A DNA stretch of 58,742 bases from a virus. The DNA lies in IMG/VR virus record IMGVR_UViG_3300036975_000060; one strand, written 5' to 3'. The translations under genes were made by a program, and so were the position numbers. Positions 3,648 through 49,460 of the stretch are shown here, one piece after another (the stretch's first letter is position 1; every line of letters begins with the position of its first letter). The notes beneath the pieces are model-generated. The model had not been told where the DNA came from, did not search any database, and saw only the letters and a list, made by a program, of their open reading frames with translations.

Positions 3648-4326
3648 TGGTGACCTCCCGATTAATCCCCATATTAGCAATTAAATTGGCACTCCTTATG
3701 ATACCATTTCTTTGAGCTGCTTTATCGCAACCATTACCTTTTAATTCTCCGGGCTCTATAAGTTTGCTTATTTCTTTCCAAACCTTCGTCCTTTCATCCA
3801 TGCGAATTATTTCGGCCATCTGCTTGGCTATGGTTTCGTCAGTCGTCTTTTTTACTTCTTCAGCAAGTGCCCGGGTTGCTGACTCAAACCATTCATCTCT
3901 GATATCCTTAGCCCTTCCCTTTTTAGGAACAAATGTCTCCAAATAGTTTAAGAGGTGTTTATCAAGGATGTCCACCAAATGAAGGTCGTCAGTCCAGTCA
4001 AGGTCTCCATATTCTTCGCATTCCGACCGGAGGAACTTAATCACATCCTCACGCTCTTTTTGACACATCTTAAGTTCGCTGTCCTCATGCGCCCTTGCCT
4101 CAGCTTCAGCCTTAGCCTTTTCGGCTTGATACTTTTGATAAGCCGCTGACTGAGTATAGCTCTCAAAAACATCTTTGACATACTCGCCCAGCCTCTTTTC
4201 ACCTATTGGAATAAAGGTTTTAGATATAGCTTCATTTGGCTTATATCGCCTAAATAATATTCCATCAACCTGAATAAATTCTACATCGTTGATGTTTATG
4301 GAATCATCCAACCATATATCTATCAT
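3640..4326 (-). CDS. Hypothetical protein (charged, helical)
   Basis: 228-aa ORF with a GGGAGGTG RBS; its start overlaps the upstream stop. Confidence 0.6.
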   Translation of the reverse strand: MIDIWLDDSININDVEFIQVDGILFRRYKPNEAISKTFIPIGEKRLGEYVKDVFESYTQSAAYQKYQAEKAKAEAEARAHEDSELKMCQKEREDVIKFLRSECEEYGDLDWTDDLHLVDILDKHLLNYLETFVPKKGRAKDIRDEWFESATRALAEEVKKTTDETIAKQMAEIIRMDERTKVWKEISKLIEPGELKGNGCDKAAQRNGIIRSANLIANMGINREVTNG

Positions 4327-4607
4327 AGTTGCACCTCCCGCCCCTGCTCATCAACATAGACCGGGATACCGAGCATCCGGATAAAGGCCCTGTCTCTTTT
4401 GCGGGTGTCTACTACTTCGTAATAGATACCCTCAAGTTTAAACTGAAAGTTTCTTTTCATTGGGTTATATTTAGAAGGTACTTTTTTATAGCCCTTCAGC
4501 GTTAACTTTCTCTCACCTGAGGCGTTTACCTCTTCATTAATCGTCTGACCTTCGTCAGATTCAAGCTCTTTGCTTTCGATTTCCGCTGTCTCTTCCATCG
4601 GATTCAT
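4323..4607 (-). CDS. Hypothetical protein
   Basis: 94-aa ORF with an AAGGAGAG RBS. Confidence 0.55.
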   Translation of the reverse strand: MNPMEETAEIESKELESDEGQTINEEVNASGERKLTLKGYKKVPSKYNPMKRNFQFKLEGIYYEVVDTRKRDRAFIRMLGIPVYVDEQGREVQL

Positions 4608-4694
4608 TAGATTTTCTCTCCTTTTAAAAGTTTTTCCAGGAGCCTGACTGTTAATTTCAGGCCCCTGATAATTGCCGTGACTATATCTCGATTA

Positions 4695-15540: not shown

Positions 15541-16644
15541 TCAAGGGGTTTTGAATAAGTTTGCATTCTTCAATGCCTGCATAATCGGAACAACCACCTG
15601 CCAGACTATTCCATTTCCGAAAGAACGCAAGAGATCATTTCTATGGGGATACCCATCAACCAGCATGGAAATTCCGGACTCAGCTTTAGGAATTCTCCGG
15701 TGTTTTCCGTCTTGACATAAGATCCAGGCATATTCGTCCCACGCTCTATAAGAGGGGTCAGTTCGCTGTATTGTCTCGGCTGATTCCCTTTTCCTGATTT
15801 GTGATCCCTTGCCGTTGTTGTCGGCCACATCGCAAAGACCTGTCTCGGGAGTTGGTCTATTCTCTGCCTCTTCGATCCGTCCGGGTTTACCCCTGTCTGA
15901 TTCATGCCCTGAGTATCCTTCCAGTCGAGACTGGAAGGGGTTGTCCACAGCGCTACTACCATAGCCCTTAATCGTTGTGTCGTGGTTGGCGGGAGAAGGC
16001 CATTTTGAACATACTCGAGATACTTCTGATCCGTCCAGTTGTCCTGCTTGTGATCTTCCCGGGTCACGGTAGGCCACAATGTACACGCGATATCTTCTGT
16101 GGGGCGCATTTTGGCTGCAAGCTGGAAGTATAATCGGTGGGAGGACTTCATAGCCTTCATTTTCCAGGTCAGAGAGCACTCCGTCGAGAAGTAATCCGCT
16201 GTCAAAATTGATGAGATTATCGACATTTTCAAGGAGGACGCTTTCGGGTTTAACATTTCGTATGACCTTAATTGTTTCCGGCCAGAGCCAGCGGTCGTCT
16301 TTTTCGCCTTTTCCCTTACCTGCGATGCTGACCGGCGGACAGGGGAACCCTGCTGAGAAAAGATTAATTGTTGTTCCATCGTGTTTATAATCCTTTATGT
16401 CTGAATGAATTGGAGTTTCCGGAAAATTAGCCTTTAACCATTTCTGGCAGAAAGAGTCTATTTCTATAAAGCAATGACAGTGATAGTTTTCCCGCCATAC
16501 ATATTCCGCCGCAAGCCTGAACATCCCTGTTCCTGTAAATCCGTCAAGATGATTCATTTCCCCTTTTTCCTTCTCCGTCCAACGGCAGCCAGGAACCCGC
16601 TTTTTGATATTAACAGCCGCCTGTGATAATATATCATCACTCAT
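15541..16644 (-). CDS. DNA (cytosine-5)-methyltransferase
   Basis: Motif I LDGFTGTG, motif IV GFPCPPVS, motif VI LLENV and motif VIII QNAPHRRYRVYIV. C-terminal segment WILCQDGKHRRIP...LVDGYPHRNDLLRSFGNGIVWQVV matches motifs IX/X. Start ATG 16644 overlaps the upstream stop as ATGA. Confidence 0.85.
   Translation of the reverse strand: MSDDILSQAAVNIKKRVPGCRWTEKEKGEMNHLDGFTGTGMFRLAAEYVWRENYHCHCFIEIDSFCQKWLKANFPETPIHSDIKDYKHDGTTINLFSAGFPCPPVSIAGKGKGEKDDRWLWPETIKVIRNVKPESVLLENVDNLINFDSGLLLDGVLSDLENEGYEVLPPIILPACSQNAPHRRYRVYIVAYRDPGRSQAGQLDGSEVSRVCSKWPSPANHDTTIKGYGSSAVDNPFQSRLEGYSGHESDRGKPGRIEEAENRPTPETGLCDVADNNGKGSQIRKRESAETIQRTDPSYRAWDEYAWILCQDGKHRRIPKAESGISMLVDGYPHRNDLLRSFGNGIVWQVVVPIMQALKNANLFKTP
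15606..16379 (-). other. 257-codon alternative (+1) frame ORF nested in the C5-MTase gene, encoding methyltransferase TRD-like peptides
   Basis: It is the longest same-strand overlapping ORF in the window; all others are under 90 aa. Its translation contains WPTVTREDHK, WTTPSSLDWKDTQGMNQTGVNPDGSKRQRIDQLPRQ, WPTTTARDHKSGKG and LSPEFPCWLMGIP. Confidence 0.4.
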
Positions 16645-17320
16645 CAACCCAAGGAGAAAGCTGCTTATGAATCTCAGCATGAACCTTGTCATACATGCCA
16701 AATATCCCCAGAGTAATCCCGAGCGCCTGACATTCTTCCAGCCGGGATCTTAGCATCTGCATCAAATCCATTTTAGTAAGGGAATCAGCTTTTTCAGGCG
16801 GAGGACCAGTCATTATTTCACTTTCTTTGGTTTTGTTTTTAACCATAGTTTTACTCTCCTTGGATTGATTTATTTTCAGATGATTCGGATCGGCAGGCTT
16901 CCAGACTCCCAGCTTTGGGTGTTCTATCCTCCCCTGGCGCCATAAATACCAGCAAGAAGAACAAAGTTCCCTTGCGTGTTGGGGCTTCTCTTTGCAGTAA
17001 ATACACTTCGGTTTTTCAAGGCCCATGTTATAATCCTTTTTTTCCTCAGTCATCGGCTTTTCTCCTTCCGGATATTTATCTCCTAAAATCTCTTTAGCTT
17101 CGCTATCATTCTTAAATTTAATAGCAGCCATATCACTTTCCTCCTGTGGTTCTGGATTTTTAAGTATTTCTTCGCTGATTTGTTCGCGCTCTACAGGCGC
17201 ACTTATGGCGTGATCGTATGGGACTCTTTCTACATATGGCGGCAAATGTCTACAGTCTCCGCACTGCTCCTGTATCATGCCATGCTTACATCGGCCTGTC
17301 GGCTTGAGGATATTGTGCAT
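16637..17320 (-). CDS. Zinc-finger hypothetical protein
   Basis: 227-aa ORF with Cys clusters CKHG..CGDC and CIYC...CSSCWYLWRQG, which look like treble-clef motifs. Confidence 0.55.
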   Translation of the reverse strand: MHNILKPTGRCKHGMIQEQCGDCRHLPPYVERVPYDHAISAPVEREQISEEILKNPEPQEESDMAAIKFKNDSEAKEILGDKYPEGEKPMTEEKKDYNMGLEKPKCIYCKEKPQHARELCSSCWYLWRQGRIEHPKLGVWKPADPNHLKINQSKESKTMVKNKTKESEIMTGPPPEKADSLTKMDLMQMLRSRLEECQALGITLGIFGMYDKVHAEIHKQLSPWVDE

Positions 17321-40845: not shown

Positions 40846-41376
40846 TTAACTGCCCGCGTTATATTTGGTTAATGGATACCAGACATTTTGAGAAACACAG
40901 AGGAAAAGTATTGAATCCCCTATATTATCCATTGAAAAATCGTTCCCCATAACAAGGCTTGCTCCATTTTTACAAACAACAGTCCTTGATCCACTTTCCG
41001 CATGTATCAAAAGAAGTTCTCCGGCGCTTCCCCCGTTGATCGTATCAAGATCGTCGCTGGCCGCGTCTCCCTCAGTATCAACAGTATGATGTCTGAAATA
41101 ATTCTGGCCTGTAACGGTTATTACTCCCCCTGATATGGTCTTTTCAGTTGCGGTGCCAAAGCCGACAGCAGAGGTTATGCCAGTTGATACAGCGGTAATA
41201 ATATCTACGTTTTCAGCAAGTAAAGTCAAAAGCTCCCGATATAAAATGGCCCTGTCCATGTATTCACTATTGGAATTCTTAATGCCTCTTATCCCTAGTA
41301 ATATTTCGAGTGTCTCTTTTACTGCCTCTTCAAAAGGAGTGCCAGGAGGAGGTATCGGCGGAAATATTGTTGCCAT
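40846..41376 (-). CDS. Structural protein
   Basis: 176-aa ORF whose start overlaps the giant gene's stop. Confidence 0.45.
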   Translation of the reverse strand: MATIFPPIPPPGTPFEEAVKETLEILLGIRGIKNSNSEYMDRAILYRELLTLLAENVDIITAVSTGITSAVGFGTATEKTISGGVITVTGQNYFRHHTVDTEGDAASDDLDTINGGSAGELLLIHAESGSRTVVCKNGASLVMGNDFSMDNIGDSILFLCVSQNVWYPLTKYNAGS

Positions 41377-44300
41377 TATTTGTTTTTCCTTAATTCTCTA
41401 TATTTTTTACGCATAACAGCATTGCTATCATAAGTTGCTGTATTTATTCCAACTATATCAAGGAAATCTCCGACTATTTCTTCAACTGGAACTTTTTCGA
41501 TATCTCCCTTTGATCTCTGATATGTTTCCACGAAATTTTGTACACCTATTGGTGTAGCCAAATTATAAGATGTGTTTCCGATAGTTGGCTTTTCATAATT
41601 AAAGTTTCTGCCTCTTGTTATATCTATCGCGGTCTTAGTAACAGGAGCGGATTTATTAACCATGAAATCGACAATTACATCAAACAGCGTTTTCGATCCA
41701 TATCGCCCTGAATTCAAGTCCGTAACTTTTTGTGTTTTTGTACTTTTTGTTTTAAAGGTAGCGGCCCTTGCCAAGAGGGTTATTATAGATCCCTTTCCAC
41801 CTGTCATGTCAAATCTTGTATTGCCTATCTTTACTTTCATAAAGTCTGAGCTTCTTGGGTCCCATTCAACAGTATCTTTGTTTCCAAATAATTCGCCTAA
41901 ACCATCAATAATGGCCGCTACAAGAGCTGTCAGACCAACTATTTTGACAAGATTTCTTCTTGCCTGCTGCCTGGCGAAAGGAGTCTTAAGCCCTGCTCCC
42001 CCGAAATGAGCGGTTAAAACGTTTATATTCCCCCAAAGCATTTTAGGCGCCCAGAATATAAGCCGCAATGGTCCTCCCGATCCCATTTTCCCCAAGTCGC
42101 CTCTTGCGGTAACAGAGTTAATAAGCTTTCCGGTTTCCTGTACCCACTCCTTTGAAGATGTATCCACGCCCTGCATATCTGCTATTTTCTTAAGCATATC
42201 ATAGGTGTTTATTCTCATCCTGACACCGGAATTTAGAAAAGCATTTTCAGACGCCTTAAATGCCCTTCCAAGATAAGGTATCCTTTCAGGTATAGAGGTG
42301 GGAAATTGTTCTTCGCTTTTCGGGATAAGTTTTGCTGTATCATAATCACCATTTATAAAATTGGGACGTGAATAAGCATCTGCCATAACCGCATCCCTGA
42401 CTATATTTCCGCCATGCTTACTTGCCAATGTTTTATAGATATCAACAAACGACTTCTTTGCAGCCGGACCCCATACAGTCGGATGCGTAAGAAGAGTATT
42501 TAGTCCCTGCCTGCCAAGAAAGCTATTATCTAATGAGGCCATCATTGAAATAGAAAGGTCAGATATGGTGCGTATAATATCCATTGTGGATTTTGTAAAG
42601 GCTTGAGCTTTGTTATCTTTCCATACTGTTTTCACTTCCTGCCATTCATCCTTGAGCATAGTTTTTATGGTTCTGTCAACGCCTTTCAAGTGATCTATAT
42701 ATCTCAAAAATGCTACTTTTGCTGCTCCGTATTTAAACCTGTCTCCCCCGGATTCCATTTCCTGCCTTGACCTTGCCATTTCCTGGGAAAGCTCAATCAG
42801 CCTATCAGCTTCTTCTCGGGTTACAACTCCGGCATTTTCAACGGCAGCATTGAAAGCTTGCTTTATGGTGTCTCGTTCGGCCTTCAGTTTTCTCCCTTCA
42901 GCATCAAGCATGGTTTCTTTGCGCGTATCTTTCTGCAGGTCCAAATTTTCCAGCTTGTCACCGAACTTCTTAATTTCATTATTTAGCCTGGTTTTAAGCC
43001 TCTGTAAAGCAACCTCTTCCGGTCTCTTTTTTGGCTTTGCAAGATCTCTTAATTCTTTGACCTTGGCTTTCAGTTCATCTCTCTGAGCCCTTAATCGGGT
43101 CAATTCTTCAGACTGAGTAGGTGTTCTTTTTGGCTTCGGAGTTAGATCATTCTCGTTTATCCTGCGGGTATACTCTTCAATGGATTTATTGACTGCATTA
43201 ACAGCAACCTTTATTCTCTGCTCTTCAGTCATTTCAGTTTTGCCGAACAGTTCATCGAATTGCTTTTTAAGATCATCCCTACGCTTCCTGAGCTTTTCGG
43301 CTTCGACATCGTATTTCAGACCGGTTTTCTTTTTAAGGATCTTCTGACCTGTTTCAATCTGATATTCAAGATCTTTTATCTGATTTTGGAGTCGGGTCTT
43401 TACGGAATCAAGAGCAGACTTGAGTTGCTTTTCAGGATCAACGGTTTCGATACCAAGTTCCTTTTTCATCTCTTCTACTTTTTTAATCAAACGGCGTTCT
43501 TCGTCCGTTGGAGTCCTGCGCTCTATACCGGTTTTTAAAGGAGCCATGCCTCTTTGCATGTCCTCAAGTTTTGCTACCTGTTGCATCTGACCTTTCAGGC
43601 CCCTCAGCTTTACAAGCACTTCGTCCTTACTTAACGGCTTGAACTTTCCATACCCTGATATGGCGTCCATGGTTTCCCGAAGCGTTATACCCTGAACAAT
43701 GTCTTTAATTACGTTGTGAACTTCTCTCACAAGAGCGTTTCTTTCGGTTACGCCCTGGGTAATGAAATACTTTGCAAGTTCTTGGATATCGGTTGATACA
43801 TCTGAATATTCTTTTCCTTGATCAATAGATGTCTGGATTTTCTCTTTCAGAACTTTGGAATTGGTCTTTTTATAAAGCCTCTTTGGTGACTTTTTTATTA
43901 ATTTATCAACCGATGTTCCTGCGTTCTCATTATCGGTTTTAGTTTCATACTCCTTAAGCTTTTTTTCAGCATCAGACAGCTTCTTTTTGAGCTCTCTTAC
44001 TTTCTCAATAGAGACTACCTTTTTGCCACGTTTTTTATTTTTCTCCTTGCGGTCCTTCTCTACGTCCTGCATGGCATTTACAGGATCTTCCATGATAGAA
44101 GAATCAGCAGCTTTTATCTCCTGACCATATTCGCTCAGTTGTGTAGGCACCCTTGATTCTGTGCCAAGATCATATAATAAATCGGAATCACCTTCGTTTA
44201 ATGCCCTGAGTTTTACGGCCTCATATACGGGGGCGACTCTTAAATTACCGGAAGGAGACTCTTCACCCATGGCAATACGTTTGGCCTTTTCGTAATCGGA

Positions 44301-47300
44301 ATTTATAAGGGCTTCGGCCTTTTCAGCCTGATCTTTCATAAATCCTTCTTTGGTCTTATACTCAGCCAGATCCCCGAAGTCTTCTGAAAGTTTTGCCTCT
44401 ATGGTATCGGCTTCAGTTCTTTTGGCAAGCTTGCTTTCCTTGGTAAATTCTCCGTGTGGGTTTTTGGAGAGATCGTCCAGCGCCTTTTCCTTTGAGAAAG
44501 ATATCCTTGGATCTGTTTTGTCGAAGGTTCCACGGTTTTCCACTGACTTAATCTGAGCAAACTCCGCACTCCTTCTCAATACATTCCGGATCTCAGCATC
44601 GGTAAGCCTCAATTTTATCCCGGCAGAGCGTAAGGCTTGTTTGATAAAAGAAATTATCCGGTCAAGCAAAGTGGCTTTCGGTTCATTGACTGCCATGTGA
44701 GCGATAACTTCCCTGGCAAAGGTTGTCTGGTCTTCAGCGCTTTTTAAATCAGGATCAAGCTTATAAGTCCATATTATATTTTTTCCAATTTCGCTATCCC
44801 GGTAATCCTTGGCAACCATATCAAAGAGTTTACGCCTATTCTCTTTGGTCAGAACTGCATCAACTCCCCTGTGGCCTATTCCTTCATGGATCAAAGTGTC
44901 CACTATGGAGGCCTCACCCTTCATGTTTTCGGCTACAATAGTGATCGAATCGGTCTGGGAATCATAGTAGGCAAATATCTTATCGTTCGTGCGCTCCTGG
45001 CCGGCGCTTTCAAATATGGAATCAGGTATCTCAGCCTGAGACTGGATGACGTTTATATTGCCGATATTCGGGAAGGCTTTCTTTACCCGGTTTACTATAT
45101 TATTCACTCCATTGGTTGAGAGAATTGACTTTCCTTTGGGGGCTTGGATGGAGGAACTATCAGACCTAAGAAAAGACGCATCTTTTTCAGGATAATATAC
45201 AACCTCATCCCCAGCTAATATTCCATCATATCCTTTTTCTCTTACAAAAATACCGGGATCGGGATACTCTTTATTGAATTCACGAATATTTTTATACTCG
45301 CTATTTTTTAAAATCCAATCTATTAAAGCTTGGGGCGCTCCTCCATAGGCCTGTAATACAAGGGGATTTCTTGGATATACATCTTCAGGATTTAATTCTT
45401 CAACTTCTCCATACATTTTTGCAAAATTTTTATCAGGAGTAGAATAAATACCCTGTCCCATTGAATAAATACCAGTTCCCTTCCCTTCTTTTGTTCCTCT
45501 ATAAAGCCTTTTAGGTGGTTTTACTTTAAACTTACTCCCTTCTTTCATAAAGGCCGGTTTGTTCACCTCCGGCATAGACCGGATCTGATCTTTATTGACA
45601 ACCTTCTTTTTTCCATCAGGAAAGGTCACTTCTACTTTTCCGGTAACAGAGGTCTTATTCTTGCCAGACTTGAATTCCCGCATAGAGACAAACGGCTTTA
45701 CCCCGCCCTTGTCGAGTCTGACCATTCCGGGGGCGTTGGGCTTGGTTTCTTCCTGCGTTGATTGTGGGGCAGGTTTGGGGGTTTCTGCCTCTGTTTCTTC
45801 AGGTTTAAGGTATTCGAGTAGTTTATTATATCTTTTAAGTTCTCTTTCGGTAAATTCGACCTGTTCAACTTGTCTTTTTATAGTGTTGTAGGCTTTATCT
45901 TTTCCACCATAAAGGATTATTGCTTTTTCAGCGTCCTGTTCAATTGTTGGAGATCCAGAATCATCAGTTATTCTGTTTTTATATGTGGTTGATAATTGCT
46001 TAGCGTTCTTTTTAAACTCAAGGAGAGCTTTTTTATTATTAACTATAGTGAAAACACCGTCTCCGGGAATGTCAATTTTAACCCATGTTGGAGCGCCTGT
46101 ATTATCCTCACCATCATTAAGTAATCTCTGTGCATCAATACCCATTTCATCGGCATATGCTTGGATGCTATTCATATTTTTACTTGTTAGTGGGCCATTT
46201 GGGGCTATTTCTACAGCCTTGTTTATCTCTGCAATAAGATATGTTTTTTGATCTTTAAGTGATAGTTTCTTATCTTGATTTTTCGTTAAATCAGCTTTTA
46301 TAATCTGTTGATCATTTTTTTCAGATGTTACTATTTTCTCTGCCTTTACTTCCTGATTGGGCTGAGAAGGTTCTTTCTTAACCTCTTCCTTTGTGGGAGT
46401 GGCTGCTTTTGCATCTTTGTAAACTTTATCAATAGCCCTGATTTCAGAGTCAATAATCCTATCAACAAGAGGAGGGAATATCCCATCTTCCAAGTTATTA
46501 GGAAAAGCCTTTTTATGTTTAGCTTCAACAAGTTTCTTTTTATTATAATTAGGATTAGCAGATGGACCTTTTTCAGTTTGTTCCCATTCCTCCATAGAAA
46601 CATTAAATTGACCTACTTTTTTGCGACCACTTCTATTTTCAACGCGGATAACGCCACTATGATAAGATGCTCTTTGGGAATTATCCCTTACAGATTTATC
46701 AGTATGAGCTATTTTATTAAGGTTTACCTCACCGGCATTTGTTCCTGTATCAACAACAGGCTTTTCCACTTCCTTAACCGGCTCGGTTTTTCCTCTATCT
46801 GAAACAACTATAGCAGGAAAAGATTTTTTACCTAATTTATGTAAGGCTACTAATCTATGAAGCCCCTCTAATATATATGGCTCCTGACCTTCCTCAGTAA
46901 CAATAATTAATGGGTTTATTTCGCCTGATTTTTTAATCTCATTTGCAAGTTTTTCGCTTCTTTCTATATCTTTTTTATCATAAAAAGTGTCTTCAGGATA
47001 CCATTCATCAATAGGTATTTCTCTAACACCTTCCATTATTTCATAATTATCTAATGTAGATGCAATTGATTCTATATTTGGGACTTCTTTCCTTACCTTC
47101 AATCCTTCAATTGTATTATTTTTGATCGGCTTAAATTCTTCCTTAACCGGTTCTGGCGTCACTTCTGGCGTTGATTTTCCTTTCAATCTCTCAAGGTCTT
47201 TAATTAACTGATCACTTGCCCCTGCTTCAGCCTTTTTCGCTACGGAAGGCATGAGAGTTTCATCGATAGAATATTTATCGGGAGACTGTTTCAATGTTCC

Positions 47301-49460
47301 ACGTGTAACAGAACTGCCTTTATTTGGCCCTTCAATAACCTCATACTGAGTCATATCCCCTGCTTCTTCGGATGATCTCTGGACTTTCATAGGGGTTATT
47401 TCTTTCCTCTGCCTACCGGGTTGTTCGGATGATCTTTGTTCCAAATCCTGGCCGCTTTCTTCTGAGCTGATTTCTTGGACATTCCTTCCTTCATAAATTT
47501 GTCCCTCATTTTCTCGTATCCTTTTGGCATTTTCTTGTATTCCCTCCTTAATAAAATCAATCATATCAGATTTTTTAAGTATACTTTTCGGCATCTTAAG
47601 CCCGTTGTCTTTGGCTATTTGCCTGAGTTCATTACCTGTATAGTCTTTGGGATTATCGCCTTTTGACAATACTCCCATTTCGATAGCAGGACCGGTACCG
47701 CTTGACACCGGACCCCTTCTGGTAGGTGCGAACTGCCCCTCTCCTTCCGGGCCAATATCTGACGGAGGAGGCGCTATTATTCCAGGTTCAGGAGCGGGTA
47801 GCTTCTTTTGTTCTTCTGGCAATAGTCCTGCAATTGGAGTTCTCCCTCTCCCGGTATCAGACTGCTGCGGTATAACAAGCCCTCTTCCTTCTCTGACAGG
47901 AACGGGTTTCAACTCGCCCTGTCTTGGAGCGTTCAATACATCTTCGCCGACGATATACGATAATGATCGTAAATCCTGAGGATCAATGCCTCTTAAATCA
48001 AGGTTTTCTCCGGTTATTATTCTGAAAGCCAAATCTTGCAAATATGGATCTTGATTAGCTAAATCCTGCCTGAGCAGTTCCTGACCTCTGGGAGTTTGTC
48101 TGTATTGCTGTTCTACACTCTCAATGTAAGGAAGGCCTTCTTCCAGTGTCCGGGCCGATTCCTCTGCAGAAATGCCGGCAATAGGCGATTGTCCCGGTAC
48201 AGTTCCCCTTACTTCCATATCTGATCTTATTTGCTGTTCTCTGGTAAGAGTAACTGTCACATCCTTTAAGATGTCAATAGGCTGTTGAACTTGTATATCC
48301 GTTTCTTTGGTAAGGTTTGCATTGAAAGTATCAGCGGGTTTTTCGTCTTTCAGGATATCAATCGGAAGGCCTTTATTTCGATTCGATCTAACATCCTTGA
48401 CAATCTGATTTACTTCTTCTTTAGTAAGTGTTCCTACCTTTCCCTGTCGCGTTTTTTCTTCTTCTTTTTCCCTTATTCTCGCTTTGATTTCGAGTATATC
48501 CTCACCCTGCACTCTGTCTGATGCATACCTTACACCTCCCCCAACTGCCGGAATAATGGCTCCTCCTAGTGCTCCAATTCCTCCGGCCTGTAATGCCTCT
48601 TTATGGGTTTCCCATTTAAGATACTCAGACCCTATCTTATTGGCTAAGTCAAGAGGTTCAGCATCAGGATTATTCGCATAAGTATCAGCTATTACATCAA
48701 GTTCCTGTTGTGTAAGTTCCTCAATTCCTTCAGCGGCCGCATTTTTAAAAATGGCAGAAATATACTGCTGAAATGGTTTGCTTAATTTTGTTTTAGTTGC
48801 GAAAGGCTGCAGTAACTTCCCAAGCGTTTTTAACTGAATTAAATTTCCAGCCATTTCAACAGGGGTCGTAAGGGATGCGCTCAAAACAGAAGCATTATAA
48901 GCCGTTTCAGGGTCTTTCCCCTCTTCAATATATTGGTCATATTTGCTTCCAGCTATAGATTCAAACGTTGCCATGGTGCCAACCCCAGGAGCTACAGCAG
49001 TTAAAGCCATGGCCGGAGCAAACTCCATAAACCCGTTTATTGCATCACTGAATATGCCGAGAGGCCTGCCCTTTTCAATATCTGGATAAACTTCGGAAGC
49101 TTGATAAAGGACATCTGAAAGTGGATTTTTGCCAATTCTTTCACCCTTTTTTACCGCTTCATATTGTTCGGGGCTACTTTTTTTCCAATCTTCATACATT
49201 CTTGGAGTCATATACGGAGGGGGCATTTTGGGTTGATTTTCAATTTGAGATGCAATCCCTATTTCTATATTTCCGGCCCCTTTTCCTATCGCCTGATATG
49301 CCTGCCTCCCTGCTTTAGCAACCCTTCCTATTACGCCCAATCCAGCATCGGGGTTTTCTATATCTTCTGAAAAAAGAAATCCCTCAGCGGAATTATCCTG
49401 GCCTGAAAGAAAAGAATCAGCGTTGTTCTCATCACTATTTAAGTAATCTAATGCGTCCAT
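41376..49460 (-). CDS. Giant (2694 aa) multidomain internal virion / ejection protein of the polyvalent type
   Basis: Single uninterrupted ORF in the gp16-like position. ParB-like segment INPLIIVTEEGQEPYILEGLHRLVALHKLGKKSFPAIVV. ART-like triad RLYRG / YSTPD / GDEVVYY. An HEGIGH motif. About 400 aa of coiled coil and a hydrophobic C-terminal region. Confidence 0.75.
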   Translation of the reverse strand: MDALDYLNSDENNADSFLSGQDNSAEGFLFSEDIENPDAGLGVIGRVAKAGRQAYQAIGKGAGNIEIGIASQIENQPKMPPPYMTPRMYEDWKKSSPEQYEAVKKGERIGKNPLSDVLYQASEVYPDIEKGRPLGIFSDAINGFMEFAPAMALTAVAPGVGTMATFESIAGSKYDQYIEEGKDPETAYNASVLSASLTTPVEMAGNLIQLKTLGKLLQPFATKTKLSKPFQQYISAIFKNAAAEGIEELTQQELDVIADTYANNPDAEPLDLANKIGSEYLKWETHKEALQAGGIGALGGAIIPAVGGGVRYASDRVQGEDILEIKARIREKEEEKTRQGKVGTLTKEEVNQIVKDVRSNRNKGLPIDILKDEKPADTFNANLTKETDIQVQQPIDILKDVTVTLTREQQIRSDMEVRGTVPGQSPIAGISAEESARTLEEGLPYIESVEQQYRQTPRGQELLRQDLANQDPYLQDLAFRIITGENLDLRGIDPQDLRSLSYIVGEDVLNAPRQGELKPVPVREGRGLVIPQQSDTGRGRTPIAGLLPEEQKKLPAPEPGIIAPPPSDIGPEGEGQFAPTRRGPVSSGTGPAIEMGVLSKGDNPKDYTGNELRQIAKDNGLKMPKSILKKSDMIDFIKEGIQENAKRIRENEGQIYEGRNVQEISSEESGQDLEQRSSEQPGRQRKEITPMKVQRSSEEAGDMTQYEVIEGPNKGSSVTRGTLKQSPDKYSIDETLMPSVAKKAEAGASDQLIKDLERLKGKSTPEVTPEPVKEEFKPIKNNTIEGLKVRKEVPNIESIASTLDNYEIMEGVREIPIDEWYPEDTFYDKKDIERSEKLANEIKKSGEINPLIIVTEEGQEPYILEGLHRLVALHKLGKKSFPAIVVSDRGKTEPVKEVEKPVVDTGTNAGEVNLNKIAHTDKSVRDNSQRASYHSGVIRVENRSGRKKVGQFNVSMEEWEQTEKGPSANPNYNKKKLVEAKHKKAFPNNLEDGIFPPLVDRIIDSEIRAIDKVYKDAKAATPTKEEVKKEPSQPNQEVKAEKIVTSEKNDQQIIKADLTKNQDKKLSLKDQKTYLIAEINKAVEIAPNGPLTSKNMNSIQAYADEMGIDAQRLLNDGEDNTGAPTWVKIDIPGDGVFTIVNNKKALLEFKKNAKQLSTTYKNRITDDSGSPTIEQDAEKAIILYGGKDKAYNTIKRQVEQVEFTERELKRYNKLLEYLKPEETEAETPKPAPQSTQEETKPNAPGMVRLDKGGVKPFVSMREFKSGKNKTSVTGKVEVTFPDGKKKVVNKDQIRSMPEVNKPAFMKEGSKFKVKPPKRLYRGTKEGKGTGIYSMGQGIYSTPDKNFAKMYGEVEELNPEDVYPRNPLVLQAYGGAPQALIDWILKNSEYKNIREFNKEYPDPGIFVREKGYDGILAGDEVVYYPEKDASFLRSDSSSIQAPKGKSILSTNGVNNIVNRVKKAFPNIGNINVIQSQAEIPDSIFESAGQERTNDKIFAYYDSQTDSITIVAENMKGEASIVDTLIHEGIGHRGVDAVLTKENRRKLFDMVAKDYRDSEIGKNIIWTYKLDPDLKSAEDQTTFAREVIAHMAVNEPKATLLDRIISFIKQALRSAGIKLRLTDAEIRNVLRRSAEFAQIKSVENRGTFDKTDPRISFSKEKALDDLSKNPHGEFTKESKLAKRTEADTIEAKLSEDFGDLAEYKTKEGFMKDQAEKAEALINSDYEKAKRIAMGEESPSGNLRVAPVYEAVKLRALNEGDSDLLYDLGTESRVPTQLSEYGQEIKAADSSIMEDPVNAMQDVEKDRKEKNKKRGKKVVSIEKVRELKKKLSDAEKKLKEYETKTDNENAGTSVDKLIKKSPKRLYKKTNSKVLKEKIQTSIDQGKEYSDVSTDIQELAKYFITQGVTERNALVREVHNVIKDIVQGITLRETMDAISGYGKFKPLSKDEVLVKLRGLKGQMQQVAKLEDMQRGMAPLKTGIERRTPTDEERRLIKKVEEMKKELGIETVDPEKQLKSALDSVKTRLQNQIKDLEYQIETGQKILKKKTGLKYDVEAEKLRKRRDDLKKQFDELFGKTEMTEEQRIKVAVNAVNKSIEEYTRRINENDLTPKPKRTPTQSEELTRLRAQRDELKAKVKELRDLAKPKKRPEEVALQRLKTRLNNEIKKFGDKLENLDLQKDTRKETMLDAEGRKLKAERDTIKQAFNAAVENAGVVTREEADRLIELSQEMARSRQEMESGGDRFKYGAAKVAFLRYIDHLKGVDRTIKTMLKDEWQEVKTVWKDNKAQAFTKSTMDIIRTISDLSISMMASLDNSFLGRQGLNTLLTHPTVWGPAAKKSFVDIYKTLASKHGGNIVRDAVMADAYSRPNFINGDYDTAKLIPKSEEQFPTSIPERIPYLGRAFKASENAFLNSGVRMRINTYDMLKKIADMQGVDTSSKEWVQETGKLINSVTARGDLGKMGSGGPLRLIFWAPKMLWGNINVLTAHFGGAGLKTPFARQQARRNLVKIVGLTALVAAIIDGLGELFGNKDTVEWDPRSSDFMKVKIGNTRFDMTGGKGSIITLLARAATFKTKSTKTQKVTDLNSGRYGSKTLFDVIVDFMVNKSAPVTKTAIDITRGRNFNYEKPTIGNTSYNLATPIGVQNFVETYQRSKGDIEKVPVEEIVGDFLDIVGINTATYDSNAVMRKKYRELRKNK

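Follow-up and report, generated by a model that had tools for sequence, protein, structure and literature searches.

A phage C5-methyltransferase gene carries a second conserved reading frame nested within it, a layout shared by related phage and prophage genes

The window analyzed here, a 58,742-nucleotide stretch of viral DNA (IMG/VR record IMGVR_UViG_3300036975_000060), carries on its minus strand a methyltransferase gene that is open in two same-strand frames (Table 1). Frame 0 encodes a protein, here called alpha, which is the same as P0021, the JGI gene call for this contig; a second possible start, TTG at 16701, lies upstream of its ATG. In the +1 frame, 262 codons separate one stop from the next, and this open stretch contains a beta-like ORF, here called beta. 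The original prediction had reported an uninterrupted +1 frame of 257 codons within the methyltransferase gene. Our analysis bore this out and reproduced all of the coordinates and peptides given for both frames. Across the 30 window ORFs that reach 200 codons, the next-longest nested open stretch in an alternative frame measured 94 codons. The +2 frame of the methyltransferase gene itself contained 30 stops, and its longest open stretch was 38 codons.

Table 1 Features of the two-frame methyltransferase gene, with positions counted along the whole window.
Feature	Coordinates	Strand	Remark
Alpha ORF, frame 0	16644..15541	(-)	ATG 16644 to stop 15541; 367 aa; predicted C5-cytosine DNA methyltransferase; motifs I-VIII and X
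Alpha motif I, LDGFTGTG	16525..16548	(-)	AdoMet-binding loop; upstream of the overlap
AAGGA, possible Shine-Dalgarno	16391..16395	(-)	11 nt upstream of beta ATG 16379; weak, spacing beyond optimal
Beta-like ORF, +1 frame	16379..15606	(-)	257 aa; nested entirely within the alpha ORF
Alpha motif IV, GFPCPPVS	16327..16350	(-)	Catalytic Cys; beta overlaps it with its N-terminal part, which is weakly constrained
Alpha motif VI, ENV	16222..16230	(-)	Same bases in +1 give the family-typical 'LKM'
Beta hairpin motif, YFSTECSLTWKMKAMKSSHRLYFQL	16119..16193	(-)	Dual-coding with alpha ...LLLDGVLSDLENEGYEVLPPIILPA
Alpha motif VIII, QNAPHRRYRVYIV	16075..16113	(-)	Downstream of the conserved beta hairpin motif
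Beta middle	15786..16076	(-)	Three W-[PT]-T-x-[ST] units and the DWKDT..NPDGS.RQRIDQLPRQ block
Beta unit 1, WPTVTREDHK	16047-16076	(-)	+1 frame
Alpha variable middle, frame-0 residues 193-301	15742..16068	(-)	Amino acids unconserved, frame open
Beta unit 2, WTTPSSLDWKD	15915-15947	(-)	+1 frame
Conserved DWKDT..NPDGS.RQRIDQLPRQ block of beta, GVNPDGSKRQRIDQLPRQ	15840-15893	(-)	+1 frame
Beta unit 3, WPTTTARDHKSGKG	15786-15827	(-)	+1 frame
Beta motif-IX-like element, LSPEFPCWLMGIP	15645..15683	(-)	Overlaps alpha ..SGISMLVDGYP
Alpha motif X, LLRSFGNGIVWQVV	15592..15633	(-)	Mostly past the beta stop at 15606-15608; conserved in frame 0, synonymous sites free

Alpha matched the C5-cytosine DNA methyltransferase family over the whole domain and above the profile cut-offs. 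PF00145 aligned to residues 31-287 (E = 5e-36; 125.2 bits, cut-off 22), phrog_363 to residues 23-362 (E = 6e-58), and the dcm model TIGR00675 to residues 35-357 (105.5 bits, cut-off 100.65; model positions 4-328 of 329). Alpha also matched M.HhaI (E = 4e-18), to whose motif IX a DGKxRR..DGYP stretch of alpha aligned weakly. Motifs I, IV, VI, VIII and X (LDGFTGTG, GFPCPPVS, ENV, APHRRYRVYIV and FGNGIVWQVV) all lie in frame 0 and are conserved across 73 loci. By profile, alpha is a complete C5-methyltransferase, predicted to transfer a methyl group to the C5 of cytosine. Given the full-length dcm match and its own weak motif-IX-like stretch, alpha might be self-sufficient. The prophage methyltransferase structure 3G7U showed only a distant, core-level relation to gp58 of phage N15 and is therefore uninformative for the variable region.

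Beta matched phrog_1008 (E = 7e-28; residues 3-251, profile positions 36-281 of 329). This family is annotated as 'DNA methyltransferase', a name that probably reflects the overlapping methyltransferase gene and not a tested function. Searches with the beta protein or profile returned no sequence match in Pfam, NCBIfam or the PDB, and beta alone gave no PF00145 hit. In total, 20,372 representative proteins match the beta family at E <= 1e-10. The beta-family HMM also matched the in-frame segment between the target-recognition domain (TRD) and motif X of single-chain actinophage methyltransferases (E = 3.5e-9). The DWKDT..NPDGS.RQRIDQLPRQ block is common to the distant homologues P0003, P0004, P0011 and P0018, and the spacing of LSPEFPCWLMGIP is that of KLHPRECARVMGYP in M.HhaI. 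For an HNH-like insert in P0003, Pfam gave a sub-threshold Stc1/zinc-ribbon match only. AlphaFold2 modeling of beta yielded a mean pLDDT of 60.2 and a pTM of 0.28 with a 95-sequence alignment, and a mean pLDDT of 54.5 with a 19-sequence alignment. The model was confident only for the hairpin, a mini-hairpin and the C-terminal helices, and the hairpin (strands 68-76 and 83-91; pLDDT 93) was its sole long confident element. This low-confidence model fits a subunit that would fold on its partner, and equally a largely disordered overprinted product.

The nested alpha/beta layout was found in every related phage or prophage gene examined, where it is unannotated. A homologue of the +1 ORF was present in 80 of 80 IMG/VR viral loci picked through the frame-0 protein, and in 79 of 80 bacterial loci picked through the +1 protein the ORF overlapped a methyltransferase ORF in its +1 frame; as these loci are phylogenetically related, both counts are higher than the number of independent events. 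The same arrangement, a +1 homologue within a complete C5-methyltransferase ORF, was seen in loci L001-L005, phage N15 gene 58, Rhodobacter phage RcMcDreamy gene 22, MW202483 and E. coli prophages. Among the loci examined in both searches, no free-standing copy of the +1 ORF was seen away from a methyltransferase ORF. Nor was a natural single-frame close relative found: a protein search with an in-silico 0/+1/0 chimera returned only alpha-type proteins and P0001. The latter was rejected as a single-frame relative, being a fusion in which a 1-nt indel (L005/P0001) joins the alpha core to the beta middle. A close, near-identical relative of the window gene, L092, retains the core and C-terminus of alpha and the two ends of beta, and differs in the middle WPTP cassette. 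Between these two genes, frame 0 shows 10 synonymous changes per 102 codons in the overlap and 12 per 58 outside it, roughly half the density within the overlap.

Both frames are open well beyond expectation. Across loci, the median open stretch was 270 codons in the +1 frame versus 41 in the +2 frame. Over alpha residues 95-192, the +1 frame contained no stop in 73 of 73 loci, versus 3.9 expected, and when the frame-0 codons of these residues were synonymously resampled in the window gene, it remained open in 0.3% of trials. The variable middle of frame 0 likewise contained no stop in 72 of 72 loci, versus a mean of 4.5 expected, and it remained open in 2% of trials (1% for the window) when synonymous codons of the +1 frame were shuffled. 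The unconserved middle of frame 0 is kept stop-free by selection. The two-frame layout is neither chance nor assembly error.

The frame under selection changes along the gene. Synonymous diversity of frame 0 relative to expectation (Hsyn/Hexp) was near 1 over motifs I-III (0.91), and was 0.93 over motif X, 0.78 over residues 98-150 around motif IV and 0.49 over the +1 hairpin motif. The strongest synonymous constraint (0.26) fell on the +1 motif-IX-like element. Within the hairpin segment, S and W of the +1 frame do not vary in 73 loci and are set by third codon positions of frame 0. At motif VIII, selection is dominated by frame 0, the 4-fold sites of A180 and P181 being free. In the alpha variable middle, the most variable site is codon position 1 of frame 0; from the first WPTP/LPTP unit to WTELPF, it is position 3 of the +1 frame, which dominates selection there, and the alpha middle appears to be its passenger. 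Constraint acts on frame 0 over motifs I-VIII plus motif X and on the +1 frame from the hairpin upstream of motif VIII, via the WPTP repeats, to the motif-IX-like LxPxFxxWLMGxP element. This succession agrees with the original prediction that family-typical sequence runs from frame 0 into +1 near 16075 and back to frame 0 near 15650. Since motif VIII, conserved in frame 0, is preceded by the conserved hairpin of the +1 frame, one polypeptide cannot hold both, and two translation paths are required. The alpha and beta-like ORFs are both real: in very distant phages and prophages alike, each is conserved, maintained as an open frame and subject to purifying selection.

Translation of beta probably begins at a start of its own inside the alpha gene. 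A +1-frame ATG lies upstream of the conserved part of beta in every locus, at a position that varies between subfamilies and is not strictly conserved. Within the proteobacterial subfamily, GGAG or AGGAG stands exactly 8 nt before a +1-frame ATG in 33 of 62 loci. This motif is created by rare AGG-AGY codons in alpha: Arg AGG occupies the site in 40% of loci versus 9% elsewhere in the same genes. A clear Shine-Dalgarno signal before the beta ATG was seen in this subfamily only. In addition, gene callers place the start of thousands of beta-family proteins at the same profile position.

Taken together, the evidence favors a genuine overlapping gene, one of three options that the original prediction had listed without choosing among them. 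We consider it likely that the gene specifies a two-polypeptide C5-methyltransferase from overlapping frames, similar to M.EcoHK31I, in which beta is needed for activity. Alpha would supply the large catalytic domain with motifs I-VIII and, at its far end, motif X, the two parts being linked by a middle segment whose sequence the other frame dictates. Beta, made from an internal start, would contribute an N-terminal beta-hairpin, the WPTP-type repeats and the motif-IX-like LxPxFxxWLMGxP element, and the two chains would assemble into the active enzyme, by analogy with M.EcoHK31I. We infer that beta is initiated independently, that it assembles with alpha, and that both chains are needed for methylation.

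M.EcoHK31I from E. coli HK31 is a heterodimeric C5-methyltransferase, described originally by Lee, Kam & Shaw 1995 (as cited in PMC2836561 and PMC3404938). Its alpha chain carries motifs I-VIII plus motif X, and its beta chain, which carries motif IX, is encoded wholly within the alpha gene in a different frame and uses internal start codons (PMC2836561, PMC3404938). Both chains are required: when the beta starts were removed by changes silent in alpha, methylation was lost, and beta supplied in trans restored it (PMC2836561). The enzyme is part of a restriction-modification system, and its TRD has been assigned to alpha (PMC2836561, PMC3404938). Compared with this published description, frame 0 of the window gene likewise carries motif X besides motifs I-VIII, and its nested +1 ORF contains a motif-IX-like element. 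Unlike M.EcoHK31I, the genes described here belong to phages and prophages, and the neighborhoods examined contained no restriction gene; the window beta additionally has WPTP repeats and a conserved hairpin, and the variable region of alpha shows no conservation of its own. Searches of E. coli genomes and plasmids for M.EcoHK31I returned only prophage and phage-plasmid copies. In the literature searched on overlapping genes or frameshifting in phage methyltransferases, this layout was described for M.EcoHK31I only. Another two-subunit C5-methyltransferase, M.AquI from Agmenellum quadruplicatum, has motifs I-VIII on its large subunit, whose end follows motif VIII and part of the TRD, and motifs IX and X on its small one (PMC3404938). 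As in M.AquI, the conserved motifs of the window gene would be divided over two polypeptides, but here motif X is on the large chain together with motifs I-VIII, and the second ORF is fully nested instead of following the first.

Beta could also be a real overlapping product without being a methyltransferase subunit, for instance a regulator, a DNA-binding protein or an anti-defence protein that arose by overprinting and travels with the gene. We regard this as improbable. The lack of any Pfam, NCBIfam or PDB sequence match, a mostly low-confidence AlphaFold2 model of the kind common for overprinted proteins, and an alpha that by itself matches the complete dcm model would all suit such a product. 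However, the C-terminal module of beta has a homologue in single-chain actinophage C5-methyltransferases, namely their in-frame TRD/motif-IX region, beta was never found apart from a methyltransferase ORF, and the sole characterized case of this architecture requires beta for methylation (PMC2836561). The original prediction had named, as findings that would speak against it, an end-to-end alignment of the frame-0 protein with C5-methyltransferases combined with a +1 translation lacking significant hits and stops in the +1 frame of homologues. An end-to-end alignment of frame 0 was indeed obtained, with TIGR00675, but the +1 frame matches strongly and stays open in homologues, and so the overlapping-frame finding stands.

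Less probable still is a single chain produced by two programmed frameshifts, from frame 0 to +1 after motif VIII and from +1 back to 0 after the motif-IX-like element, either alone or beside unshifted products. The dominant frame under selection does run 0, +1, 0, and the single-chain actinophage enzymes show exactly this order of core, LPTP, WMMGxP and GNGVVP. The 0/+1/0 chimera, a check proposed with the original prediction, aligned to PF00145 positions 2-322 of 324, yet it scored no better than frame 0 alone (122.1 versus 125.2 bits) and gained nothing against M.HhaI either. No conserved slippery site was detected: an XXXYYYZ heptamer occurs in 8 of 73 loci, at the second junction, and is absent from the window, homopolymers of at least six are found at the junctions in at most 1 of 73 loci, and third positions near both junctions vary freely. 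Frameshifting, another of the three listed options, is further opposed by about 100 codons of open, conserved +1 frame upstream of the presumed first shift, including the motif preceding motif VIII, by a frame 0 held open by selection for about 125 codons past that junction, and by the Shine-Dalgarno sequence and ATG of the +1 ORF in relatives.

Very unlikely is an untranslated +1 frame whose openness and conservation would be by-products of frame-0 constraint, base composition or a signal at the RNA or DNA level. Over motifs IV-VI, frame-0 conservation does induce much of the similarity in +1, the 4-fold sites being nearly free, and the GFPCQ/GSPAS and ENV/KM correspondences are a direct result of the frame offset. 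Against this, the middle and C-terminal parts carry a +1 protein-coding codon-position signature where frame 0 shows no amino-acid conservation, synonymous positions of frame 0 determine invariant +1 residues, and the +1 frame has no stops in any intact locus over a range of 40-66% GC. Finally, breaks do occur in a few loci (the L005/P0001 indel, an in-frame alpha stop in L001 and L073, and a frame break in L169), but compensating indels, the remaining listed option, whether from assembly or sequencing or in a decaying pseudogene, have a negligible probability, since more than 160 independently assembled loci share the layout, including the finished N15 genome and complete E. coli chromosomes, and neither frame is broken in the window or in L092.

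If the two-chain methyltransferase reading is correct, the nested alpha/beta design, so far treated as an oddity of M.EcoHK31I, may be normal in a major clade of phage methyltransferases. Tens of thousands of beta-family 'hypothetical proteins' without a Pfam family appear to represent the other frame of C5-methyltransferase genes in phages and prophages. Records that annotate the methyltransferase alone, in turn, lack a conserved product, as for N15 gp58, E. coli prophages, and Rhodobacter, Klebsiella and Salmonella phages. This matters in practice for methylome and phage-engineering work, as recoded or 'optimised' expression of the annotated ORF alone would destroy beta and could give an inactive enzyme. 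The overlap covers about 250-350 codons, with both frames selected across phyla; few same-strand overlaps of prokaryotic viruses match it in length and spread, and it is a good natural system for studying dual-coding constraints. In phage lambda, Rz1 (about 60 codons) is embedded in the +1 frame of Rz, and the two products act together in lysis; the overlap in the window gene differs in extending over about 257 codons and in involving the conserved catalytic motifs of an enzyme.

A more tentative proposal, which we judge possible but not probable, is that beta is the target-recognition subunit, with the WPTP/LPTP cassette as a swappable specificity module and the alpha middle as a passenger tether, and that the clade derives from single-chain enzymes of the actinophage type whose small domain (TRD and motif IX) moved to another frame. 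A hint at such swapping is that the window gene and L092 differ by a replaced cassette. If beta were such a relocated TRD and motif IX, its homologues would make up a very large, ancient family of long overlapping genes on the same strand, numbering more than 20,000 distinct representatives. The single-chain actinophage enzymes, such as Mycobacterium phage RitaG gp71 and Propionibacterium phage B22 gp50, have the same building blocks as the window gene, namely a C5 core, one or more LLPTPxAxD units, ..F.EWMMGxPxGW and GNGVVPQQA, and the beta HMM matches their TRD/motif-IX segment. Unlike in the window gene, their last LPTP unit, motif IX and motif X all lie in the core frame, forming one polypeptide. 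As a separate observation, a hairpin-plus-LPTP segment of B22 is still found in the +1 frame (E = 4.5e-6).

The methyltransferase gene of the window can be read in two frames of the minus strand. The frame-0 protein, alpha, matches PF00145 (E = 5e-36), phrog_363 nearly end to end (E = 6e-58) and, over residues 35–357, the dcm model TIGR00675 with a score over the cut-off; against M.HhaI it gives E = 4e-18. The ORF nested within it, beta, has no match in Pfam, NCBIfam or PDB sequences, and phrog_1008 covers almost its whole length (E = 7e-28). In the +1 frame, 262 codons run without a stop. No other nested open stretch exceeds 94 codons among the window's 30 ORFs of 200 codons or more, and the +2 frame of the methyltransferase gene holds 30 stops. 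All peptides quoted from both frames in the original prediction were found where it had placed them. The 58.7-kb contig (overall GC 41%) carries phage genes for a large terminase, a portal protein, RecT, an SbcC-like protein and a replication initiator. The ORF preceding alpha contains CxxC pairs, has no PHROG match and ends 8 nt into alpha, an overlap suggestive of translational coupling with the methyltransferase gene.

Coordinates of the two-frame gene, its surroundings and individual comparison loci
Feature	Position	Strand/frame	Remarks
Alpha ORF	window, ATG 16644 to stop 15541	minus	367 aa; JGI-called gene P0021
Beta ORF, ATG-initiated	window 16379..15606	minus, +1 frame	257 aa
AAGGA	11 nt upstream of beta ATG 16379	minus	possible Shine-Dalgarno sequence; spacing longer than optimal
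Upstream ORF	window 16637-17320	minus	227 aa
ATGA	window 16644-16641		includes alpha ATG
TGA	window 16639-16637		follows ATGA; stop of upstream ORF
Single large ORF	window 41376-49460	minus	2694 aa; structural-gene region
L092 locus, middle cassette replaced	L092 901-1821, compared with window 15742-16068	+1 frame	
L091 insert	~900-1500	+1 frame	JGI contig Ga0485183_002009, P0003
L089	81-2180		Propionibacterium phage B22 gene 50
L005	366-1387		JGI contig
L001	3856-4752		phage MN693294.1
L001 beta	4001-4669		intact
L001 alpha in-frame stop	4153-4155		between motifs IV and VI

A protein search with beta returned "stand-alone" proteins of 220–360 aa, which over their first ~100 residues match the beta segment overlapping alpha motifs IV–VIII; in one of them, P0007, KSHRLYFQLAAKTHPTDEIASGLLPTP aligns with KSSHRLYFQLAAKMRPTEDIACTLWPT of the window's beta. 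At the DNA level (L001–L004), each proved to lie within a complete C5-methyltransferase ORF, in its +1 frame. The same nested layout occurs in the cultured phages Escherichia phage N15 (gene 58), Rhodobacter phage RcMcDreamy (gene 22) and MW202483, while matches in Klebsiella, Salmonella, Edwardsiella, Vibrio and Paenibacillus phages lie beneath annotated methyltransferase genes, by position and with the frame not checked singly. All 80 IMG/VR loci picked via the frame-0 protein alone (30–49% identity) contain a +1 open segment matching the HMM of the beta homologues, or +1 family (E 1e-20 to 1e-43). A second survey started from the +1 family only and took in 80 bacterial loci (Planctomycetota, Desulfovibrio, Alpha-, Beta- and Gammaproteobacteria, Verrucomicrobia, Chlorobium, Spirochaetes, Flavobacteriaceae and others). 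Seventy-nine of them have the family ORF in +1 relative to a methyltransferase ORF, and the remaining locus has a frame break. No free-standing copy was seen among the 80 viral and 80 bacterial loci.

The two-frame arrangement is real, not an artefact, and both frames are under selection. Across 89 loci, the longest +1 open stretch has a median length of 270 codons (79% of the methyltransferase ORF), compared with a median of 41 open codons and 27 stops in the +2 frame, and in 74 of the 89 it exceeds all 200 synonymous-codon shuffles. Over alpha residues 95–192, none of 73 loci has a +1 stop, where 3.9 were expected and 3% of trials stayed open. In all 72 intact loci, frame 0 likewise has no stop over alpha's unconserved middle, residues 193–318, where shuffles of +1 synonymous codons introduced a mean of 4.5 frame-0 stops and left 2% of trials open. 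We also compared observed with expected synonymous diversity of frame 0 (Hsyn/Hexp) by segment in 73 non-identical loci. The ratio was 0.91 over motifs I–III, ahead of the overlap, 0.78 over motifs IV–VI, 0.49 at the +1 motif WYSxxCxLTWKMKxTKxxRLLFQL, 0.63 over motif VIII, 0.26 at the +1 motif LNPxFVxEMMGFP and 0.93 over motif X, past the +1 stop. Fixed frame-0 third positions account for the invariance of the +1 residues S and W in the WYS..RLLFQL motif. Between the first WPTP/LPTP unit and WTELPF, variability peaks at +1 codon position 3, the signature of coding in +1, and the amino acids of frame 0 show no conservation. Together with the synonymous-diversity pattern, it follows that the dominant frame runs 0 → +1 → 0, as the original prediction had it, but not as one polypeptide: the conserved +1 hairpin lies upstream of the frame-0-conserved motif VIII, and the two therefore cannot both belong to a single chain. 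Between the window and its closest relative, L092, the 58 codons outside the overlap carry 12 frame-0 synonymous changes and the 102 within it carry 10, just one of them in the hairpin segment, which fits selection on both frames.

A 48-residue test peptide, modelled on actinophage enzymes and spanning the WMMGLP element to motif X, matched 581 phage records. Mycobacterium phage RitaG gp71 and Propionibacterium phage B22 gp50 were the two loci read from end to end, and in both the C5 core, an LLPTPxAxD unit, ..F.EWMMGxPxGWVT and ..LRALGNGVVPQQA share one frame. Since the +1-family HMM matches this in-frame segment (E = 3.5e-9), WPTP-plus-WLMGxP appears to be a genuine C5-methyltransferase small-domain/motif-IX module, placed in the core's frame in the actinophage enzymes but in the +1 frame in the window's clade. 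The +1 frame of B22 gene 50 itself contains a hairpin-plus-LPTP segment (TWPTSGMTRDGVAFEHPMSVPRTDASGSSLLHTPRAS..LLPTPMAQQ; E = 4.5e-6 against the beta-family HMM), and actinophage genes may retain part of the dual-frame arrangement. That gene also carries an intein-like insert of ~350 aa exactly at the motif IV catalytic Cys (GGSPC/FVAGTSVL...VVHNC/QDLS).

The C-terminal LSPEFPCWLMGIP of beta has exactly the spacing of M.HhaI motif IX, KLHPRECARVMGYP, and the placement of motif IX on beta is supported but not proven. L092 and the window are near-identical in alpha core, alpha C-terminus and both beta ends; the middle cassette is replaced in L092 by a different, shorter WPTP cassette, again in +1 (alpha is 306 aa vs 367 aa), which is the behaviour expected of a recognition module. 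An AlphaFold2 model of beta from a 95-sequence alignment has a mean pLDDT of 60 and three confident elements only: a beta-hairpin at residues 68–91 (pLDDT 93), a mini-hairpin at 160–172 and C-terminal helices around WLMGIP. As modelled, beta looks like a chain in need of a partner. L091 has an insertion of ~150 codons that separates alpha motif VI (FGEQV) from the motif VIII region; read in the beta frame, it specifies a CxxC..CxxC zinc-ribbon and then an HNH-like segment (..PSLDQIDAGKGYTMDN..). Frame 0 is open throughout, and Pfam gave a sub-threshold Stc1 match only.

M.EcoHK31I is the sole experimentally characterised enzyme in the literature with a nested alpha/beta layout: alpha carries motifs I–VIII, X and the TRD, beta carries motif IX, and both are needed for activity (PMC2836561; PMC3404938). 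Silencing the beta start codons with alpha unchanged abolished methylation, and beta in trans restored it (PMC2836561). The second two-subunit enzyme, M.AquI, is split differently, with motifs I–VIII on alpha and IX–X on beta (PMC3404938). The window gene shares the architectural features of M.EcoHK31I, a likeness of layout, and by this analogy it is probably an alpha/beta C5-methyltransferase of that kind. That beta is real but serves another role is unlikely. Less likely still is a single-chain methyltransferase produced by double frameshift, an option listed in the original prediction as programmed frameshifting: the hairpin order is joined by the lack of a conserved slippery heptamer (8 of 73 loci have a heptamer, the window none), the near absence of homopolymers at both junctions (in no more than 1 of 73 loci) and freely varying third positions around them.

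For the favoured two-chain enzyme, an independent start of beta is likewise supported but not proven. A +1 ATG precedes the conserved part in every locus, 71 codons ahead of the invariant W in the window. In the proteobacterial subfamily (L093–L174), the alpha peptide VD[ET]RSIEDV uses unusual codons: Arg is the rare AGG in 25 of 62 loci vs 9% elsewhere in the same genes, and Ser is AGY in 42 of 56 vs 42% elsewhere. These successive codons thereby place GGAG or AGGAG exactly 8 nt upstream of a +1-frame ATG (33 of 62 loci), a plausible candidate internal ribosome-binding site within alpha coding sequence.

The nested alpha/beta kind is known but obscure, and here it seems to be standard in a very large clade of phage and prophage methyltransferases; our literature searches found it nowhere described as general for phage methyltransferases. 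The +1-family profile matched 33,627 representative proteins at E ≤ 0.001, 20,372 of them at E ≤ 1e-10; among the matches listed, none had a Pfam domain, and the few source names were all "hypothetical protein". An N15-like copy resides in prophages of 63 of 5426 complete E. coli genomes, annotated as the methyltransferase only; two of these loci were examined and have +1 open stretches of 297 and 311 codons. The second product of nested methyltransferase genes is systematically absent from, or mislabelled in, annotation.

A few individual loci are broken. P0001, from L005, is the one apparent in-frame core–WPTP fusion, and a 1-nt indel produced it: just past motif VIII, the indel shifts both proteins together, joining the alpha core to the WPTP/IX part of beta and displacing motif X into a third frame. 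In databases the product passes for an ordinary methyltransferase of 322 aa. In L001, only beta was called (P0007) and alpha is uncalled; the single alpha stop could reflect a decaying alpha, sequencing error or recoding.
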